Virus record (IMG/VR): IMGVR_UViG_3300045988_103535
Source of the DNA: a virus
DNA length: 64,000 nt
Reading direction: 5' to 3' (one strand)
Positions 3,039 through 59,010 of this stretch are shown here, piece by piece. The notes beneath the pieces are model-generated. The model made no database searches. It saw only the letters and a program-made list of their open reading frames with translations, and was not told the origin of the DNA. The translations under genes and the position numbers were made by a program. Position 1 is the stretch's first letter; every line of letters begins with the position of its first letter.

Positions 3039-3068
3039 GTTAACAAACTTAGGTATTTAATATATAAT
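3039..3068 (+). promoter_or_regulatory. GTTAACA-type promoter upstream of scaffold/capsid operon
   Basis: GTTAACA (3039-3045), 17 nt, TATAAT (3063-3068), then the conserved ATAAGTA. Confidence 0.6.
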
Positions 3069-26195: not shown

Positions 26196-26221
26196 GTTAG
26201 GAGGTTCTCAACAAAAACCTC
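26196..26221 (+). promoter_or_regulatory. conserved intercistronic hairpin element, copy 1
   Basis: GAGGTT-N9-AACCTC, then AATATAAAATAAAAAGGGGATATGAAAAATG. Homologous to 58952-59013. Confidence 0.4.
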
Positions 26222-26249
26222 AATATAAAATAAAAAGGGGATATGAAAA

Positions 26250-34781: not shown

Positions 34782-34793
34782 GGAGGAATGAAC

Positions 34794-37697
34794 ATGGAAT
34801 TAAAAAATTGGCTAGACACGCAGTTAGGTCAAGATATTTGGACTAGAAAATATCAAAATGGAGACGAGACATTCGACCAATGGCTTGATAGAGTATCAAA
34901 TGGAGATGATGCTGTCAAAGATTTAATATTAAGTAAAAAATTTATATTCGGAGGTAGAATATTAGCATCAAGAGGAATTACTGACAGAAAAGTAACTTAT
35001 AGTAATTGTTATGTATTACCTCCAGTAGGTGACAGTATAGAAGAAATATACGACACTAATAAATACTTGGCAAGAACATTTTCATACGGTGGAGGTTGTG
35101 GTATTGATATATCACAACTAAGACCCAAAGGTTCACCAGTTAATAATGCTGCATTGACAACAACTGGAGCAGTTTCATTTATGGAAACATTCAATAATAC
35201 TTCACAGACTATAGGACAAAAAGGTAGACGTGGAGCATTAATGATAAGTATGGACGTAAACCATGCGGAAATTGAAGATTTTATAAACGCAAAAACTCAA
35301 AATGAAAAATTAGAAGAATGTAATATCTCAGTAAGAACAGATGAATCATTTATGAATAGAGTAATAGATGGAGACGATAATGCAAATAAATTAATGTATA
35401 AATTAGCTGAAAATAACTGGAACTGGGGAGAACCTGGAATGTTATTTTGGGATAATATTAATAAAGAAACATTATTATCTGAGTATATAAAGAATGGCAA
35501 GTTTGAGTTTGCAGGAGTTAACCCATGTTTAGTAGGTGATACACTAATACAAACTATAGAAGGTGCTAAACCTATAAAAGATTTAGTAGGAACTCAACCC
35601 TATGTTTACTGCATGAACGATGAAGGTAAATTAATTATCAAGCAAGCAAGTAAAGTATGGAAAACTAGAGAAAATGCAGAATTAGTTGAAATTGATTTTA
35701 ATAGAGGAAAACTAATTTGTACACCTGACCATAAAATATTTACTAGAAATAGAGGCTGGGTAAAAGCAGTAGATTTACAACCTAAAGATAAATTAAATGG
35801 GTTAGGATTTAGCAAAGGAAATGAAATAGACGAAGTTGTTAAACTATCATCTGATGCAAAATACTATAAACATCATAGATTCATAATGGAACAAATGGGA
35901 TTTGATATTAAGAATAAAGACATACATCATAAAGATGCAAACCACTTAAATAATGTATACAGTAATTTAGAAGTACTAGAACATGATAAACATAGTAGAC
36001 ATACTAATTTAGGTCATAAGTGTTACGCTGACAAAGATTTAGCAACTGGTCAATTTATAGCTAAAGCAGTCAAAGCTAAAACTAAAAAAACTAATAGTGT
36101 TAATCATGTTAATACAGGTAAAAACTTTATAGTAAAATCAGTTACAAAATTAAATTATACTGCTGATGTGTATGACATGACAGTTAAAGGAGTACACAAT
36201 TTTATAGCTAATAATATAATAGTTCACAACTGCGCAGAAGAGCCATTGCCAGCTGGAGGCAGTTGTTTATTAGGTTCACTTAATTTAGCAGAATTTGTAA
36301 AAGACCCATTCGGTAAGAGACCTGCATTTGATATACCTAGTTTTAAACAAGCTGTAAAAGTAGCAATACGAGCATTAAATCAAGTATTAGACGAGGGGTT
36401 ACCATTACACCCATTACAAATACAAAGAGACTCAGTTGCAAAATGGAGACAAATAGGTCTTGGCATTATGGGATTTGGCGACATGCTTATCAAAATGAGA
36501 ATACCATATGGAAGTGATAGATGTTCTAATTTAATAGCAACAATAGGTATGGCATTATGTAATGCTGGACTTCAAGAGTCAGCTTTACTTGCAAAAGAAT
36601 TAGGTACATTCGAAGCATATAATTCAGACTATATACTTAGCTCATTTTATTTACAAAGTAAAATAAAAGAAGGCGTAATATATGAAGAAACTATTGACTT
36701 AATAAAAGCTCATGGTCTTAGAAATAGTCAATTATTTACAATAGCACCAACAGGTAGTATAGGTACTATGTTCGGTGTATCAACTGGAGTCGAACCTATA
36801 TATGATGTCAACGGTTTTGCAAGAACAACAAAATCATTAAACGCTGAGGATAAAGTTTACATGGAATACCCAAATATTGTGCAACGAGCAATTGAAGCTG
36901 ACGATATCGACATGCTAAATAATAAACCGGCATATTTGATAGGAGCAAAAGACTTAGACTTTATGAGTAGAGTAAAAACTCAAGCCGATTGGCAAGTGTG
37001 GATTGATGCTAGTATTTCTAGTACTTTAAATTTACCTAAAGAGTCTCCAGTTGAAGACGTATTTAAAGCATATGTTGCCGCACATGAATTAGGTTGTAAA
37101 GGCTTAACTGTATTCAGAGACGGCTGTAAAAAAGAAGGTATTTTAAAAGGAGTAGCTAAAGAGGAAAAACCTGAACCTACTCAATTAAATGCAATCGACA
37201 CCGACATAAATCATTGTATTGCATTTGGCAGTAAACTGCAAACAGGTTGTGGAAGTTTATGGATGACTGTATATTTCCATAAGAAAACTGGTCAACTATG
37301 CCATATATTCTTAAACAAAGGAAGTAAAGGCGGTTGTAATAGTTATATGGTAGGTTTATCAAGACTAATATCATTAGCAGGTAAAAAAGGAGCAACTGTT
37401 GAAGAAATTGTCGACCAACTAAAATCCGTTGTGGCTTTTCCTTCATTTTTAAGTAGAAAAACAACTGAAGCAAGTATTAGTGACGGCAGAAGTTGTGCAG
37501 AGGCAGTAGGTAGAGAGTTGTTAAAATTACACGAGCAATTTAAACTAAATTATCTTAATCAACCTGAAATTACTCAACTTAAAATTGATAATGAGGTAAA
37601 AATTGAAATTGCAAAATGTCCCGAATGTGGTGCAGAATTAAGTCATACAGGTGGCTGTATTAATTGTTATAATTGCGGTTGGACAAAATGCGATTAG
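34794..37697 (+). CDS. nrdJ: class II (adenosylcobalamin-type) ribonucleotide reductase, interrupted by an intein
   Basis: Exteins join to '...GVNP|CAEEPLPAGGSC', restoring the NPCxE active-site loop. Also contains 'TVFRDGCKKEGIL' and a C-terminal zinc ribbon 'CPECGAEL...CINCYNCG'. ATG at 34794 preferred (7 nt after AGGAGG). Confidence 0.85.
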   Translation: MELKNWLDTQLGQDIWTRKYQNGDETFDQWLDRVSNGDDAVKDLILSKKFIFGGRILASRGITDRKVTYSNCYVLPPVGDSIEEIYDTNKYLARTFSYGGGCGIDISQLRPKGSPVNNAALTTTGAVSFMETFNNTSQTIGQKGRRGALMISMDVNHAEIEDFINAKTQNEKLEECNISVRTDESFMNRVIDGDDNANKLMYKLAENNWNWGEPGMLFWDNINKETLLSEYIKNGKFEFAGVNPCLVGDTLIQTIEGAKPIKDLVGTQPYVYCMNDEGKLIIKQASKVWKTRENAELVEIDFNRGKLICTPDHKIFTRNRGWVKAVDLQPKDKLNGLGFSKGNEIDEVVKLSSDAKYYKHHRFIMEQMGFDIKNKDIHHKDANHLNNVYSNLEVLEHDKHSRHTNLGHKCYADKDLATGQFIAKAVKAKTKKTNSVNHVNTGKNFIVKSVTKLNYTADVYDMTVKGVHNFIANNIIVHNCAEEPLPAGGSCLLGSLNLAEFVKDPFGKRPAFDIPSFKQAVKVAIRALNQVLDEGLPLHPLQIQRDSVAKWRQIGLGIMGFGDMLIKMRIPYGSDRCSNLIATIGMALCNAGLQESALLAKELGTFEAYNSDYILSSFYLQSKIKEGVIYEETIDLIKAHGLRNSQLFTIAPTGSIGTMFGVSTGVEPIYDVNGFARTTKSLNAEDKVYMEYPNIVQRAIEADDIDMLNNKPAYLIGAKDLDFMSRVKTQADWQVWIDASISSTLNLPKESPVEDVFKAYVAAHELGCKGLTVFRDGCKKEGILKGVAKEEKPEPTQLNAIDTDINHCIAFGSKLQTGCGSLWMTVYFHKKTGQLCHIFLNKGSKGGCNSYMVGLSRLISLAGKKGATVEEIVDQLKSVVAFPSFLSRKTTEASISDGRSCAEAVGRELLKLHEQFKLNYLNQPEITQLKIDNEVKIEIAKCPECGAELSHTGGCINCYNCGWTKCD
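35526..36230 (+). mobile_element. intein (235 aa) with HNH-type endonuclease domain
   Basis: Starts with Cys ('CLVGDTLIQTIEGAKPIKDL'). Ends '...NNIIVHN' before the +1 Cys. Internal 'HHKDANHLNNVYSNLEVLEHDKHSRH'. Confidence 0.8.
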
Positions 37698-42395: not shown

Positions 42396-43352
42396 ATGTT
42401 ATTCGATTATTCTGAAATAAAAGGTTATACTAGATTTAAGTATAACCCTGAAAATGTAAAAATTGCTACTGAGTTAATACAGGCACAACCTTATATGCTT
42501 TATTCATTTTCAATAGCAGAACTATTTAGCTATTATGATAGTGATAGAAGAAGACTTTATATTAATAAAGACTATAAAGAAACTGGAGACATAATTTTAA
42601 TATCAATTACTGGAAAATATAGTAAAAAGGCAGAGATGATTTGCCCATTATGTAGTAATGAAAGGTTGTATAAAGAAATGAAAGCAATACCTATGCCAGT
42701 TAAAGTTTCATTCGTACCTGCAGCACAATCTAAAGAATTTATTACTCAATATAAAGATACACAAAGAACTAGAACTGCAGGTGACTTTGTGTACGACTTA
42801 GAAGACATATCTAAATTGCAAGGTGGTAAATGGCATAGTAGTAGAAAAAAGGTAAAAAGAGCACAAAAGAATTTAACCTGGAGATACGCAACATATGAAG
42901 ACTATGATTTAATAATGAATTTTTTACAAACATGGCTAAATGACTGCAAAAGCACAGAACGATTATCAAGACCGGCAATAGGTAGAGATAAAAATTTAAT
43001 AAACTTCATATGGCAGAATAAATTATTAGAAAAGAACCCATTTTATATAGTATTAGTATTTTATGAAGGAAAACTAGATGCAATTAATGTTACTGAGTTA
43101 TCATTATTTAATAGAGAGTGGCAATTAGGTATATTGGAAAAATCACTTCGCCAATATAATTTGAGTGGCTTTTATGTAGGTTGGTTATGTGAGGATATTG
43201 GCTATCATGAAGGCAGAAAATTTGATAATGCATCAGGTCCGTATCATGATATGTATAATAAAGACGGAATTAATGACCATAAAATGCTATTTAAACCTAT
43301 AGATTTTTATTACTCATACACAATAGAATTTAAAAAGAATTCCAAAAAATAG
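42396..43352 (+). CDS. DUF2156-like (MprF C-terminal / aminoacyl-tRNA-dependent transferase-like) protein
   Basis: 'GDFVYDLEDISKLQGGKWHSSRKKVKRAQKNL' resembles the DYxYxxxxLxxLxGxxxxxxRxxxxxF core of that family. ~300 aa, consistent with a tandem-GNAT size. By-eye call only. Confidence 0.4.
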   Translation: MLFDYSEIKGYTRFKYNPENVKIATELIQAQPYMLYSFSIAELFSYYDSDRRRLYINKDYKETGDIILISITGKYSKKAEMICPLCSNERLYKEMKAIPMPVKVSFVPAAQSKEFITQYKDTQRTRTAGDFVYDLEDISKLQGGKWHSSRKKVKRAQKNLTWRYATYEDYDLIMNFLQTWLNDCKSTERLSRPAIGRDKNLINFIWQNKLLEKNPFYIVLVFYEGKLDAINVTELSLFNREWQLGILEKSLRQYNLSGFYVGWLCEDIGYHEGRKFDNASGPYHDMYNKDGINDHKMLFKPIDFYYSYTIEFKKNSKK

Positions 43353-43381
43353 TTAACATTATACTGTAAAAATTGTATATT
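43352..43381 (+). promoter_or_regulatory. GTTAACA-type promoter upstream of rSAM-like/QueT operon
   Basis: GTTAACA-N17-TATATTATAAGTA. Confidence 0.55.
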
Positions 43382-43389
43382 ATAAGTAC

Positions 43390-43448
43390 GTGGAGTAGTT
43401 TTCCTAATCCTGCTCCACTATAAAAATATTAAAACAGGAGGTTCTAAA
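43390..43448 (+). promoter_or_regulatory. preQ1-I-riboswitch-like leader (hairpin + A-rich tail + SD-sequestering pairing)
   Basis: GUGGAG(UAG)-UUUUCCUAAUC-(CUG)CUCCAC, then UAUAAAAAUAUUAAAAC, then AGGAGG. Loop UCCU/UCCUG is complementary to the SD AGGA/CAGGA. Confidence 0.35.
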
Positions 43449-44204
43449 ATGGACGAAATGAAAAGATATGGCATTGTTAATGATGCTAAAGAACAAATGG
43501 AAGTTGTATTATTAAGAGGTACTGGGTGTGAATGGGCTCAATGTAATTTCTGCGATTATTGTATTGACCATGATAAAAATACAGAAGCAGACTATCAACT
43601 TAATGCAAAAGTATTAGACAAAGTTACTGGCATACACAATAAGTTACAAGTAATATGCAGTGGAAGTTTCGCAGAATTAGATAGTAAAACTATTGAGTAT
43701 ATTCACAAAGTAGTAACTGAAAAGAAAATATCAACTGTAATATTTGAAGGACATTATATGCACAGAAAATTTATAAAATTTATGAGATTAATTTTTAGTG
43801 GCATAAATCTAGAGTTTATAGTAGGCGCAGAAACTTTTAATTTATTCAATCGTGAAGCTATATTGAATAAAGGAATGGGAGTGGCAAGTCCTCAAAGTAT
43901 TAGTAAATATTTTAATAGAACTAATTTATTATTCGGTTGGAAAGGTCAAACATATGAGTCTTTCTTGGAAGATGTTGAATTAGGTCTTAAATATTTCGAC
44001 AAAATTTGTATTAATGTATTTACTCCTAATACAACAAAATTTGAGCGAGATGAAAAATTAGTACAACAATTTTATAATTCTACTGAGTTTCAAGAATTAT
44101 TAGCAAATCCTAGAGTAAGAATAATTGATGACTTAAATCGAGATATTACAGATACATTCGATTTAGTCGGAGAAAAATTGTCTAAAATAGGAGGTACTAA
44201 ATAA
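43449..44204 (+). CDS. radical-SAM-like enzyme (non-canonical Cys cluster)
   Basis: N-terminal 'VVLLRGTGCEWAQCNFCDYC' (Cx4Cx2Cx2C). ~250 aa, TIM-barrel-sized. It does not show the QueE 'QGEG' pattern. Confidence 0.4.
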   Translation: MDEMKRYGIVNDAKEQMEVVLLRGTGCEWAQCNFCDYCIDHDKNTEADYQLNAKVLDKVTGIHNKLQVICSGSFAELDSKTIEYIHKVVTEKKISTVIFEGHYMHRKFIKFMRLIFSGINLEFIVGAETFNLFNREAILNKGMGVASPQSISKYFNRTNLLFGWKGQTYESFLEDVELGLKYFDKICINVFTPNTTKFERDEKLVQQFYNSTEFQELLANPRVRIIDDLNRDITDTFDLVGEKLSKIGGTK

Positions 44205-44701
44205 TGAAAGTAACAGTAAAATCAATGTGTAGAATAAGCATAGTAGCCGCACTTTATTTTGTAATAACAATGGTATGTAAACCTTTTGTATTCGGACCGG
44301 TTGAATTCAGATTATCCGAAATGTTAAATTTCTTAATGTTTATAGACCCAATATATATAATAGGAATTACATTAGGTTGTGCATTGAGTAACTTCTTTAC
44401 ATTTGGAGTTATGGACGTATTTATAGGTTCAGCTTCTACATTCCTTGTAGGTGTTCTAATGTGGAAAGGCAAAAGAATGTGGTATGGAATTCCAATAGCA
44501 ACATTAGGTACAAGTGTAATTGCTTGGGAATTATGGTTTTTCTTTGGTTTACCATTTTGGTATCAATTTGCTGTTGGAGCATTTGGCGAATTTGTAAGTA
44601 TGGTACTTGGATATATTGTAGCTGTAAAATTATTCAAGAACGAAGGTTTACTAAATATATTTAGATGTACACCTGGCAATAATAAAGAAGTAAAATATTA
44701 G
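44204..44701 (+). CDS. queT: QueT-like queuosine-precursor transporter (ECF S-component)
   Basis: 'ISIVAALYFVITMVCKPFVFGPVEFRLSEMLNFL' matches the QueT N-terminal signature (AALY...F.f..iqFRiSE). 5-6 TM segments. Confidence 0.65.
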   Translation: MKVTVKSMCRISIVAALYFVITMVCKPFVFGPVEFRLSEMLNFLMFIDPIYIIGITLGCALSNFFTFGVMDVFIGSASTFLVGVLMWKGKRMWYGIPIATLGTSVIAWELWFFFGLPFWYQFAVGAFGEFVSMVLGYIVAVKLFKNEGLLNIFRCTPGNNKEVKY

Positions 44702-44711
44702 AAAAAATATA

Positions 44712-44743
44712 ATGAGTAGGGTTAACAACCTTACTCATTTTTT
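44712..44743 (+). terminator. terminator whose loop carries the next promoter's GTTAACA
   Basis: ATGAGTAGG-gttaaca-ACCTTACTCAT followed by TTTTTT. Confidence 0.65.
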
Positions 44744-44782: not shown

Positions 44783-45700
44783 ATGGATTTGTATTTTGCA
44801 GGACAAGGTCAAATAGCATCAGACGTATTTATATCAAAACTTCATGTTAATAGACTTTACTCATTCTTAGATGGGTCTAGATGTATTAATAGGTGGATTG
44901 GTCTTACAGAAGGTCAAACTGACTCAAAATTATTTTTAGACTCAGGTGCATTTACTGCTCATACAAAAGGTAAAACTGTTAATGTTGATGAATATATTGC
45001 TCGAATAAATGAGTTAGACGAACATCTTACATTATATGCACAACTTGATACAATCCCAGGTGAATATAAAAAACCTAAGACTATACAACAGTTAAAAGAA
45101 GCGCCCGAATTGAGTTGGCAAAATTATTTATATATGAAAGACAAAGTAGCAAATAGAGATAAATTATTGTCTATATTTCATCAAGGAGAAGACTTTAAAC
45201 ATTTAAAAAGAATGTTAGAATATAGACATGAAGACGGTGAGCCAATAAAATATATTGGAATATCACCTGCCAATGATGTTGTAACTCAGTATAAAGATAA
45301 ATGGTTTGCACAGGTATTTGGAATTATAAAAAATTCCAGTAACCCAAACGTAAAGACGCATGCATTTGGAATGACTTCAAAATTAATGTTAGAAAAATAT
45401 CCATTTACTTCTGCTGATGCAACTACATGGTTAGTGCATGCTCGTATGGGAACATTACATTTCGGTGATAACAATATTGTAGTGTCTGACAGGAAAACAG
45501 ATGACCCAAATTTTTATAAAAATTTAGGACCTGAAATGATAAAAGCATTTGAAGACAAAGTTGAAGAACGAGGTTTAGACTTAGACTTGATGATGACTTC
45601 TTGTCATTATAGAAGTAGATGGGAAGCATTAGAATTAGTTGAGTGGCTACAAAATTATGAGTATAAAGGTAGTACAAAATTTCAAAAACGATTATTTTAG
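44783..45700 (+). CDS. dpdA: DpdA / tRNA-guanine-transglycosylase-fold protein (putative DNA 7-deazaguanine transglycosylase)
   Basis: 'FLDSGAFTA' versus TGT 'DSGGFQ'. 'SADATTWLVHARMGTLHF' versus TGT 'MFDCVxPTRxARNGxLF', with identical D-x7-AR-x-G spacing. No TGT zinc site is obvious, as in DpdA. Confidence 0.6.
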   Translation: MDLYFAGQGQIASDVFISKLHVNRLYSFLDGSRCINRWIGLTEGQTDSKLFLDSGAFTAHTKGKTVNVDEYIARINELDEHLTLYAQLDTIPGEYKKPKTIQQLKEAPELSWQNYLYMKDKVANRDKLLSIFHQGEDFKHLKRMLEYRHEDGEPIKYIGISPANDVVTQYKDKWFAQVFGIIKNSSNPNVKTHAFGMTSKLMLEKYPFTSADATTWLVHARMGTLHFGDNNIVVSDRKTDDPNFYKNLGPEMIKAFEDKVEERGLDLDLMMTSCHYRSRWEALELVEWLQNYEYKGSTKFQKRLF

Positions 45701-49512: not shown

Positions 49513-50685
49513 ATGAGAAACATAGATTTAAAAATGGCAGAGCTTAATAAAAAATTCAAAGCTCAAATAATCAACCAGGGAACAGACATAATAGAAGTAG
49601 CAAAAATACCATTTAGTTCACCTACAGCTAACTGGATGACCTATGGCGGAATTCCAGTAGGTAAAATAACTGAGTTTTTCGGTGGCGAAGGTGGAGGTAA
49701 AACAACTTCCGCATTAGATATATGTGCAAATGCACAAAAGAAATTTAATGAAGTATTTGAACAACATAAAGAAAAAGTGTTAGACGAAATAGAACAACTT
49801 AAAGCAAAAGACACAAAAGACTCTAAAAAGAAAGCAGATAAATTGATGTCAGATTTAATGGAATACGTAGAGCGAGGTCCGAAAGTAGTTGTATATATTG
49901 ATGCCGAACAAACACTTGATGTACAATGGGCACAACTATTAGGAGTAGACACTGAAGCCATGATATTAGTTAGACCTCAAGAACAAACCGCAGAACAAGT
50001 ATTACAAATAGCAATTGATTTAATAGCAACTGGAGATGTTGGATTATGTGTGCTTGACTCAATACCAATGTTAGTTTCTCAAAATATATTCAATGAAGAC
50101 ATGGATAAAAAATCGTATGGAGGAATATCTCAAGCATTAACAGTATTTTGTAGTAAAGTTACTCCACATTTAACTCAAAATCAATGTGCGTTTATTGGAA
50201 TTAATCAAATAAGAGAAGATTTAGCAAGTATGTATAATACCGTATCAACTCCAGGTGGTAAAATGTGGAAACATGCTTGCTCATTAAGATTAAGATTTAG
50301 AAAAGACACTTTATTAGATATGAATAATGGCGAATTAACTTCAAGAGCTGAAAATCCAGCAGGTAATAGAGTCGGTATTGAAATTGCAAAAACTAAGGTT
50401 TGTAAACCTGATAGAAGAATTGGCTATTATACTTTAAATTATACTGAAGGCATTGATGTATTAGCAGACATAATTACAGTAGCATTACAATATCGAATAT
50501 TAAAACAAGGTGGCAGTTGGTATTACTATTTAGATGAAGAAGGTAATGTTGAAGTAGATGCAGAAAACAATGAAATAAAATTTCAAGGTAAAGCTAAATT
50601 ATTAGACGAATTAAGAAATGATGAAGAATTCAAAGAAGATGTTATATCTAGATTAAATAAGGTGATGTACAATGAAAACAAATAA
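49513..50685 (+). CDS. RecA-family recombinase
   Basis: Contains 'GGIPVGKITEFFGGEGGGKTTSALD' and 'VYIDAEQTLD'. 390 aa. Confidence 0.8.
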   Translation: MRNIDLKMAELNKKFKAQIINQGTDIIEVAKIPFSSPTANWMTYGGIPVGKITEFFGGEGGGKTTSALDICANAQKKFNEVFEQHKEKVLDEIEQLKAKDTKDSKKKADKLMSDLMEYVERGPKVVVYIDAEQTLDVQWAQLLGVDTEAMILVRPQEQTAEQVLQIAIDLIATGDVGLCVLDSIPMLVSQNIFNEDMDKKSYGGISQALTVFCSKVTPHLTQNQCAFIGINQIREDLASMYNTVSTPGGKMWKHACSLRLRFRKDTLLDMNNGELTSRAENPAGNRVGIEIAKTKVCKPDRRIGYYTLNYTEGIDVLADIITVALQYRILKQGGSWYYYLDEEGNVEVDAENNEIKFQGKAKLLDELRNDEEFKEDVISRLNKVMYNENK

Positions 50686-51280
50686 TTCTGAATTAATTCA
50701 AGAACTGGTTATAAAAATACAACATTCTGAAGGCGTTGAAAAACGCCTCCTTTTAAACCAACTAACACCTGAACTAGAAGCTTTTATATGGAGTATTCTC
50801 AGAACACATGGAGTAAAACAGTTACCTCAAGACTCATTTCAAACAGCATGGCTAGGTGTTATGCAAGCTATAGAAACTTATGATGCATCAAAAGGCACTA
50901 AATTTCTCACTCATTGTTATTGGCAAATATTGAGTTCTTTATCAAAACTAAAAATATATGCATCACGATATGAAACAGGTCAAGGAACATGGTCTCTATC
51001 TAGTTTAAATCAAATTATAATAGATACTGATAATGTTCCACTTCAAGAAAAATTAGTAGCTTCAGACGATACTGCTACAGATTGTGTAGTAAAAACCTTA
51101 AAAGAAAGCGCTATACAACTCATAGAACAAAATTATACAGGAACTAAGAAACTAATACTGTTAAAGTATATGCAAGGGGTCAGACCAGTAGACATCGCAG
51201 CACAGTTAGGAGTTACAAGAAGTCATGTCTCAAATACAGTTAGTAAATTTAAACAAAAATGTAGAAAAGAGTTAACATAA
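50672..51280 (+). CDS. phage sigma-70-family factor
   Basis: Region 2-like 'QDSFQTAWLGVMQAIETYDASKGTKFLTHCYWQILSSL'. Region 4 'KLILLKYMQGVRPVDIAAQLGVTRSHVSNTVSKFKQKCRKEL'. Confidence 0.7.
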   Translation: MKTNNSELIQELVIKIQHSEGVEKRLLLNQLTPELEAFIWSILRTHGVKQLPQDSFQTAWLGVMQAIETYDASKGTKFLTHCYWQILSSLSKLKIYASRYETGQGTWSLSSLNQIIIDTDNVPLQEKLVASDDTATDCVVKTLKESAIQLIEQNYTGTKKLILLKYMQGVRPVDIAAQLGVTRSHVSNTVSKFKQKCRKELT

Positions 51281-58951: not shown

Positions 58952-58980
58952 TTAGGGTTTGAGGTTATCCCTAAAACCTC
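58952..58980 (+). promoter_or_regulatory. conserved intercistronic hairpin element, copy 2
   Basis: TTAGGG...CCCTAA and GAGGTT...AACCTC (overlapping alternatives), then TAATATAAAAATAAAGGGGGATAT. Confidence 0.4.
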
Positions 58981-59010
58981 TAATATAAAAATAAAGGGGG
59001 ATATATAAAA

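Follow-up and report, generated by a model that had tools for sequence, protein, structure and literature searches.

A preQ1-I-like leader in front of the queL-queT operon of a phage: a candidate riboswitch beyond the known subtypes

Three subtypes of the preQ1-I riboswitch are known. Type I, represented by the Carnobacterium antarcticum structure and the leader of the C. difficile queK-qrtT-queL operon (PMC11477304) and modelled in Rfam as RF00522, is built from a helix P1, a loop, an A-rich stretch L3 and a second helix, P2, that overlaps the Shine-Dalgarno sequence (SD), and it controls queL and a QueT-family transporter at the level of translation. Its hallmarks are a UC right before the 3' strand of P1 (PMC11625349), a UU right after the 5' strand of P1, a conserved C in the tail and the pair G5-C18 as the floor of the pocket (PMC11625349, PMC8752633). 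The ligand is contacted by G5-C18, U6, U7, U16, C17, A30 and C31, and the last six of these bases form two stacked ligand sites (PMC8752633). Here we describe a leader of comparable layout at positions 43390-43451 of IMG/VR virus record IMGVR_UViG_3300045988_103535, of which a stretch of 64,000 nucleotides was analysed as a whole (the window). The leader sits on the + strand between a promoter and two queuosine-precursor genes, queL and queT. On balance we favour, with some reserve, the view that it would act as a preQ1-responsive translational off-switch of the preQ1-I lineage that has diverged past the reach of the existing models.

The leader was pointed out in an earlier note made from the letters of the DNA alone, and the sequence quoted there was found exactly in place. 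Sequence, fold and relatives agree on helix P1, i.e. the 5' strand GUGGAGUAG (43390-43398) paired with the 3' strand CUGCUCCAC (43410-43418) over 9 bp, one U-G among them, and this hairpin is the minimum-energy fold (-16.9 kcal/mol, z = -2.4 relative to shuffles). Its top pair, G43398-C43410, is a G-C pair as in the preQ1-I pocket floor, G43398 being the counterpart of G5. The enclosed loop UUUUCCUAAUC (43399-43409) has 11 nt, is rich in pyrimidines and can be divided into L1, UUU (43399-43401), the first two bases of which correspond to U6 and U7 of types I and III; the proposed 5' strand of P2, UCCU (43402-43405), an anti-SD that would pair with AGGA at 43436-43439; and L2, AAUC (43406-43409), in which U43408 is the counterpart of U16 and C43409 that of the specificity base C17. 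The A-rich tail L3, UAUAAAAAUAUUAAAAC (43419-43435, 17 nt), ends in AAAAC (43431-43435), with counterparts of A28-A30 and of C31, and leads directly into the SD AGGAGG (43436-43441), which is also the proposed 3' strand of P2 and is separated by a 7-nt spacer from the AUG at 43449-43451. All the ligand-contacting positions of type I have counterparts in this leader. A second complementarity lies at the junction of loop and P1, where UCCUG (43408-43412) faces CAGGA (43435-43439), so that both pairings of loop and SD described in the note, UCCU with AGGA and UCCUG with CAGGA, are present in the sequence; its remark that the stem of up to 9 bp and the tail of 17 nt are longer than canonical likewise stands, P1 usually having 5-6 bp. 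The hairpin was ruled out as a terminator, for the U-tract is absent and the terminator scan made no call at this position.

Set against type I, the leader shares the order P1, loop and A-rich L3, with a possible P2 that would overlap the SD, the G-C pair under the pocket, the UU after the 5' strand and the UC before the 3' strand of P1, and the A-A-C just before the SD (the counterparts of A30 and C31); by analogy, it would also share the translational control of queL and of a QueT-family transporter. It differs in a P1 of 9 bp instead of 5, in an 11-nt loop that lacks C8, G9, A11 and A12 (the CGUAA block), in the loss of U32 and with it of the C8-A12-U32 ceiling (AAAAC-AGG in place of AAAAC-UA(A)GG), in an L3 of 17 nt, in having no RF00522 match, and in a P2 that could comprise four Watson-Crick and two G-U pairs, whereas type I forms one or two. 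In other respects the leader resembles type III, as known from E. coli yhhQ (PDB 8fza), which likewise has a short loop rich in pyrimidines (UUU(U)CCUAAUC in the window, UUCCCUCAC in E. coli), a long linker of variable length before a conserved adenine run, and control over a precursor transporter. In type III, P2 is formed by the CCU of the loop with the (A)AGG/AGGA of the SD and occludes the SD fully, and the same would hold for the window leader by analogy. The two differ in the bases before the 3' strand of P1 (UC in the window, AC in type III), in the 9-bp P1 of the window, in C43435, which separates the adenines from P2 and takes the place of the ligand-contacting A27/A33 of E. coli, the last of the 4-5 adenines that directly abut P2 in type III, and in the organisms concerned, a phage of a low-GC host as opposed to gamma-proteobacteria. 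Read in the type I register, C43435 would be the C31 of the second ligand site. When a small aptamer is taken to have a P1 of 5-6 bp and a loop of 9-12 nt, the 11-nt loop lies within range and the 9-bp P1 outside it. The class preQ1-II (RF01054), found in the queT/COG4708 leaders of Streptococcaceae and Lactobacillales, regulates queT through a pseudoknot that sequesters the SD, as the window leader may do; its HLout fold, however, takes up about 80 nt, encloses a P4 hairpin and has a different pocket, the window leader does not match it, and 52 nt leave no room for such a fold. The window has a single hairpin between promoter and SD, as opposed to the extra hairpin of preQ1-II and preQ1-III. 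The preQ1-I-like layout, H-type if P2 forms, that had been proposed for this position in front of queuosine-precursor genes holds up, whereas the comparison with B. subtilis addressed the wrong subtype: the B. subtilis riboswitch is of type II, with AC before P1, and the window leader combines UC with UU.

Conservation within the lineage of the window was assessed with two contigs (L004 and L022) whose QueL is 73-78% identical to that of the window. In these, 10 of 10 shared loop bases and 20 of 20 bases of the tail and the SD, from AAAAAUAUUAAAAC through AGGAGG, are identical, i.e. 30/30 unpaired leader bases, as compared to 52-53% identity at the fourfold-degenerate sites of queL; the flanks, both upstream of the -35 box and between SD and AUG, have diverged. 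The unpaired bases of the leader are under purifying selection. L1 is invariant in the relatives save for the loss of one U (U43399 and U43400 are always retained), the UC formed by U43408 and C43409 is found in all of them, the UCCU anti-SD does not vary in the lineage, and the top G-C pair is present in 6/6 members. P1, in turn, has 7-8 bp in L004 and L022 and is fully paired in the relatives in spite of one compensatory change from A-U to G-C and one U-G/U-A change; in L022 the eighth pair is moreover flipped from U-A to A-U, as seen by eye (MAFFT gapped this pair out). Invariant unpaired bases on a drifting stem make up the pattern of an aptamer rather than that of a mere stabilising hairpin.

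How often the edges of such a loop arise by chance was estimated from all hairpins in the window with a stem of at least 6 bp and a loop of 8-24 nt, of which there are 4426. A three-part signature, consisting of a G-C closing pair, a loop starting with UU and a loop ending with UC, and defined from the literature rather than from these data, was found in 7/4426; two of the seven also contain CCU, and one of these two is the leader of queL. Across 2.1 Mb of other viral DNA the signature occurs in 158 of 143,531 hairpins (0.11%).

A described counterpart of the locus is found in Streptococcus phage Dp-1, whose DNA carries dPreQ1 (PMC6884629). Global alignment of promoter plus leader with the corresponding region of Dp-1 scores 76.5, as compared to 31.0 +/- 5.1 for shuffled sequences (z = 8-9), and the transcribed part alone scores 55 versus 20.9 +/- 4.1, a score reached by 0/1000 shuffles. 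Common to both sequences are TTAACA, the -10 box, AUAAGU, AG-UUUU, CCU, AUC-CUGCU, the A-rich run, AGGAGG and the spacer between SD and AUG. In terms of architecture, the two leaders agree in the type of promoter, the AUAAGU start, the frame AG|UUUU ... CCU ... AUC|CUGCU, the A-rich tail, AGGAGG with a similar spacer to the AUG, and the slot in front of the first 7-deazaguanine gene, and the surrounding order queT-dpdA...dnaN-cas4 is common to both phages (syntenic). The window leader deviates by lacking GUAAA and two further bases in the loop (11 nt as opposed to 18-22 nt), by a P1 that is extended by GUGG/CCAC, and by its AAAAC next to the SD, in place of the UAA or AAU of the Dp-1 type. Judged by the alignment and by the common genomic slot, the leaders of the window and of Dp-1 share descent, and since the loop of the window corresponds to that of Dp-1 minus GUAAA and two further bases, the window leader is best described as a shortened descendant or a sibling of a Dp-1-type leader family.

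That family is found in other phages as well. Orthologues of queL in other phage contigs (L005-9, L024, L097-100, L103 and L019) hold a different leader in the same slot, of the form (C/G)AG-UUAUGUA-N-CC(U/G)-(U)GACGUC-CUG, followed by an A-rich tail of 15-18 nt and (A/C)GGAGG; in summary form, the Dp-1-type motif reads G|UU(A/U)UGUA..CCU..GAC(G/A)UC|C, A-rich tail, AGGAG. The motif or a close variant starting with UUUUGUAA precedes genes for QPTR/Vut_1 transporters in unrelated phage contigs of 77-166 kb, and it precedes queF in the unrelated phage contig L242. Leaders of the type are located at L526 48-99, i.e. phage Dp-1 itself (NC_015274 77-128), L243 6354-6412, L231 3011-3070 (- strand), L242 3643-3702 (- strand, before queF), L500-L509 638-696 and L517 4103-4161 (- strand). 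A covariance model (R1), for which 13 phage leaders but not that of Dp-1 were used, finds the leader of the Dp-1 operon queF-queC-queD-queE-folE-queT-dpdA with 35.5 bits (E 8.5e-6). The motif is absent from Rfam and is not annotated in NC_015274, where RefSeq lists only a promoter and a ribosome-binding site. P1 of this type shows compensatory changes in 6/7 pairs, with a top G-C pair that is invariant in 13/13 sequences, and the CC(U/G) of the loop covaries with the (A/C)GG of the tail (13 U-A, 3 G-C, one mismatch and no G-A; Fisher p = 0.006 for this one pair of P2, phylogeny being ignored). Between P1 and SD, contigs L005 and L024 are distinguished by three positions, of which the covarying pair of loop and tail accounts for two. 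The gene associations of the type, namely queF, queL, QPTR and a whole preQ0/preQ1 operon, are those expected of a regulator of the preQ1 family, and the Dp-1-type leader appears, from its sequences, to be itself a candidate riboswitch. In the literature searched, which did not include the Dp-1 genome paper, neither a phage-borne preQ1 riboswitch nor a regulatory RNA in the Dp-1 leader was described. Since a second model, made from five bacterial type I leaders (R2), places its match on the motif in 10 of the 13 phage loci (best 19.9 bits, E 0.0098), the Dp-1 type seems to derive from type I by insertions in loop and tail. Contig L019 encodes a QueL that is 95% identical to that of the window and yet holds a Dp-1-type leader in the same slot (L019 1440-1503, as compared to window 43386-43451), a mosaicism from which we infer that the two forms of leader have been exchanged by recombination.

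A bacterial reference is provided by 31 distinct queL leaders from gut metagenomes, which are almost invariant in CAG-UUCGNNACCAUC-CUG ... AAAAC-UA(A/G)GG and match the published type I bases U6, U7, C8, G9, A11, A12, U16, C17, A30, C31 and U32 (PMC8752633, PMC10622847). They look like type I preQ1-I aptamers. They lie about 100-150 nt upstream of queL (contigs L030-L096, for instance L063 1358-1440), and in most of them the A-rich L3 is interrupted by an additional hairpin of 15-30 nt, with a terminator behind it. Of the bacterial leaders searched, 0/20 reached the RF00522 gathering score, and one obtained 21.5 bits on that model in E-value mode.

In the window, the leader is followed by queL (43449-44204), queT (44204-44701, its start overlapping the queL stop codon by 1 nt) and an intrinsic terminator at 44711-44739 (a 13-bp stem and then a T-run) that closes the unit. 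The earlier description as an rSAM-like/QueT operon was correct as to QueT, an energy-coupling factor (ECF) S-component for queuosine precursors (PF06177, E 1.4e-30), and as to the radical S-adenosylmethionine (SAM) gene, whose identity could be sharpened: its product of 251 aa is a queuine lyase, as identified with a profile of QueL and ten homologues that matches PDB 6p78, 'Queuine lyase' (6p78_A, E 5.4e-68). There is also a weak match of QueL to TIGR01210; a weak match of the first gene to RaSEA (archaeosine) is superseded by the far stronger one to QueL. QueL turns queuine into preQ1 (PMC11130926). QueT is 33% identical to QueT of Dp-1, and the next transcription unit is dpdA, encoding a DNA 7-deazaguanine transglycosylase (44783-45700; phrog_887, E 1.4e-45) that is 44% identical to gp7 of Dp-1 (E 1e-85). 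Queries for queC, queD, queE and folE found none among the window proteins scanned. Because QueL and QueT stand beside DpdA and genes for preQ0 synthesis are absent from that set, the phage appears to obtain preQ1 for DNA modification by salvage of queuine rather than by synthesis. In the literature searched no report of QueL in a phage was found. Sister phages (L005-L009) have a Vut_1/QPTR transporter in place of QueT. The remainder of the window is taken up by structural genes and by a module for replication and nucleotide metabolism. It includes the large subunit of ribonucleotide reductase (34788-37697), which is split by an intein that contains a domain of the HNH endonuclease type (PF14890, E 7e-21; PF13392). 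For an open reading frame of 318 aa at 42396-43352, between polA and the queL promoter, PDB offers no match by sequence, and PF09924, the C-terminal domain of lysyl-phosphatidylglycerol synthase, matches only weakly (E 6e-8); the frame is missing from sister phages, in which polA abuts the leader (L004, L005 and L097). A role of its product as an aminoacyl-tRNA-dependent transferase with the modified base as substrate is pure speculation.

The promoter in front of the leader (43352-43383) consists of a -35-like GTTAACA (43352-43358) and a -10-like TATATT/TATTAT (43376-43383), and matches the sigma-70 type in 10/12 positions. It aligns with the annotated promoter of the Dp-1 operon, and, in line with the distance of about 8 nt noted before, the hairpin follows 8 nt after the end of the copy as delimited at 43352-43381. 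The pattern GTTAACA-N16-19-TATAWT occurs in 10 copies on the + strand where 0.14 are expected. In fuller form these copies make up a ten-member promoter family, GTTAACA-N16-19-(TG)TATATAAT, every member of which is located on the + strand (at 3039, 29491, 29785, 30686, 32867, 33001, 37782, 43352, 57338 and 60022). Only for the copy at 43352 does a hairpin lie between -10 box and SD; in the other intergenic regions of the window hairpins stand upstream of promoters, as terminators. A T4-late-like promoter (TATAAAAATA) within the tail, which would drop the hairpin from the mRNA, was rejected because the string is not conserved in L004 and L022, whereas the GTTAACA-type promoter upstream is. A sigma-70-like factor is encoded at 50672-51280 (Sigma70_r2, E 1.2e-6). 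Two near-identical elements at 26196-26240 and 58962-59005, each before a gene with a GGGG-type SD, consist of a hairpin GAGGUU..AACCUC and then (U)AAUAUAAAA(A)UAAA..GGGG(G)AUAU; they may represent a second class of leader or a cassette of terminator and ribosome-binding site.

By analogy with the crystal structures in the cited papers, the leader would bind one or two ligands, the ligand would be preQ1, and binding would repress translation. Transcription would start at or just before G43390, so that the 9-bp P1 hairpin forms first. When preQ1, which QueL produces and DpdA presumably uses, is plentiful, it would stack on G43398-C43410, pair in Watson-Crick fashion with C43409 and contact U43399/U43400, U43408 and the A-A-C at 43433-43435, which would fix the A-rich tail in the minor groove of P1. 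The AGGA(GG) would then dock on the (UU)UCCU of the loop as helix P2, hiding the SD of queL and lowering translation of queT as well through the overlap of stop and start codon. When preQ1 is scarce, the tail would be free and the salvage genes would be translated.

Several results weigh against this reading. The covariance-model check that the earlier note had proposed, on RF00522, RF01054 and RF02680, gave no match: with Rfam 15, none of its preQ1 classes reaches the gathering score anywhere in the window (39 bits for RF00522), and the three models give nothing at E<=10, neither on 221 nt around the leader nor on the 61-nt leader alone. The phage model R1 does not list the window leader at E<=10 in the window, and on the leader alone it gives 5.5 bits in a shifted register; the model of bacterial type I leaders, R2, misses the leader too. 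The GUAA block that is common to the loops of type I and of the Dp-1 type is deleted here, P1 with its 9 bp instead of the usual 5-6 is stable without a ligand, and in the type III register a C precedes P2 in place of A27/A33 of E. coli, where the corresponding mutant, A33C, lost regulation (PMC10622847). P2 does not vary within the lineage of the window, which makes this lineage uninformative as to the pseudoknot, and in the Dp-1-type leaders of L019 and L097 the complementarity between loop and SD amounts to only 2 bp. In the window leader this complementarity does not exceed that of shuffled loops (p = 0.13-0.19), and for this reason it is not counted as evidence by itself; nor is any weight given to the resemblance of tail plus SD as such, as strong SDs are generally preceded by A-rich sequence in this genome of 30.5% GC. 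Finally, L101 (1000-1104) and L102 have a phage-like queL-queT (QueL 56% identical) behind an AT-rich upstream region that holds no recognisable hairpin or signature, so the leader is not universal for phage queL.

The Rfam negative is nevertheless weaker than it looks, because plainly type-I-like bacterial queL leaders fall below the gathering score of RF00522 as well. The best matches to the window leader in E-value mode are noise: the SAM-II riboswitch with a long loop (15.8 bits), the plant-virus pseudoknot PK-PYVV and cow-rumen-4. SAM-II (RF01726; 15.8 bits and E 1.2 on 221 nt, 10.9 bits on the 61-nt leader, gathering score 44 bits) was rejected, given that it reflects a generic resemblance of hairpin plus A-rich tail in the wrong gene context. 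For the related loci Rfam yields nothing relevant at the gathering score, and in E-value mode L005 and Dp-1 obtain chance-level matches only. Searches of the region, QueL and the leader (megablast, tblastn, blastn) against 50,697 phage records gave no match, i.e. there is no close cultured relative among these. A scan of IMG/VR for the loop pattern of the window found only its own lineage, the remaining matches being due to chance; looser scans of IMG/VR and of GTDB genomes gave at least 120 chance matches each, and none survived filtering among the matches listed. A locus search in IMG/VR that started from QueT returned the same four contigs.

In a rival reading the leader is conserved and structured but has no ligand. 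The 5' hairpin would then shield the mRNA from exonucleolytic or RppH-dependent decay, or the hairpin and its two UCCU boxes would keep translation of a membrane transporter operon at a fixed, low level, be it as a constitutive pseudoknot or as a protein operator. A hairpin that starts 0-2 nt from the predicted 5' end with a P1 that is very stable alone would suit such a role, a classical ligand-free H-type knot is possible with the second anti-SD, UCCUG, that abuts P1, and both the lack of a covariance model that recognises the leader and the loss of the ancestral GUAA block are consistent with it. A stabiliser, however, needs no invariant loop or tail, yet 30/30 unpaired bases were kept at a neutral identity of about 52%; the loop edges match a preQ1 pocket signature present in about 0.1% of hairpins, the slot elsewhere holds a motif that is restricted to queuosine-precursor genes, and such a hairpin accompanies none of the other GTTAACA-type promoters of the window. 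We consider a ligand-free leader unlikely. The same purifying selection contradicts the notion of a decayed remnant, in which the deletion in a Dp-1-type loop ended sensing and left a hairpin with no regulatory role: the loop does resemble that of Dp-1 minus seven bases and covariance models do not match, but the deleted form is unchanged in relatives where QueL is only 75% identical, with compensatory changes in the stem, which makes decay very improbable.

If a ligand is sensed, it might be another 7-deazaguanine, either queuine, which is both the substrate of QueL and cargo of QueT, or preQ0, possibly with the leader as an on-switch. The regulated genes do import and cleave queuine, the loop and the base before P2 are unlike those of every characterised subtype, and the known preQ1-I subtypes vary in how they discriminate against preQ0 (PMC10622847). 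On the other hand, the retained C before P1, the UU and the G-C floor are contacts that recognise the aminomethyl group and the face that 7-deazaguanines have in common, the queL operons of bacteria use ordinary type-I-like preQ1 leaders, and the cyclopentenediol of queuine would need room in a loop that has become smaller; we hold this alternative to be distinctly improbable. A preQ1-responsive off-switch remains our preferred reading, with no more than modest confidence: the leader probably works like preQ1-I and descends from its neighbourhood, yet it fails the test by the family model and departs from several subtype-defining positions. A broader proposal, possible in our estimate if short of probable, is that the leaders of the window and of the Dp-1 type are phage-borne preQ1-I subtypes missed by the current models, and that the window form, on a long P1, mixes pocket residues of type I (these may be U6, U7, U16, C17, A30 and C31) with the linker and P2 of type III (a long linker and a Watson-Crick P2 that buries the SD), gating a viral route, not described before, from imported queuine to preQ1 (QueL) and on to dPreQ1 in DNA (DpdA).

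For annotation, the results point to a blind spot of Rfam-based methods, since neither the phage leaders nor the type-I-like queL leaders of bacteria reach the gathering score. The idea is directly testable in Streptococcus pneumoniae by way of Dp-1, which is cultured, has DNA known to contain dPreQ1 and possesses a related leader. If the reading is true, the preQ1-I fold, already the smallest riboswitch, tolerates more rearrangement than is seen in the three known subtypes, namely a shortened or lengthened loop, a P1 of 9 bp and a different base next to P2. A phage-encoded queuine lyase would mean that gut phages compete with bacteria and with the host for the micronutrient queuine, and viruses that swap the guanine of their DNA for 7-deazaguanines would, if the leader is indeed a switch, regulate the pathway by a metabolite sensor of their own.

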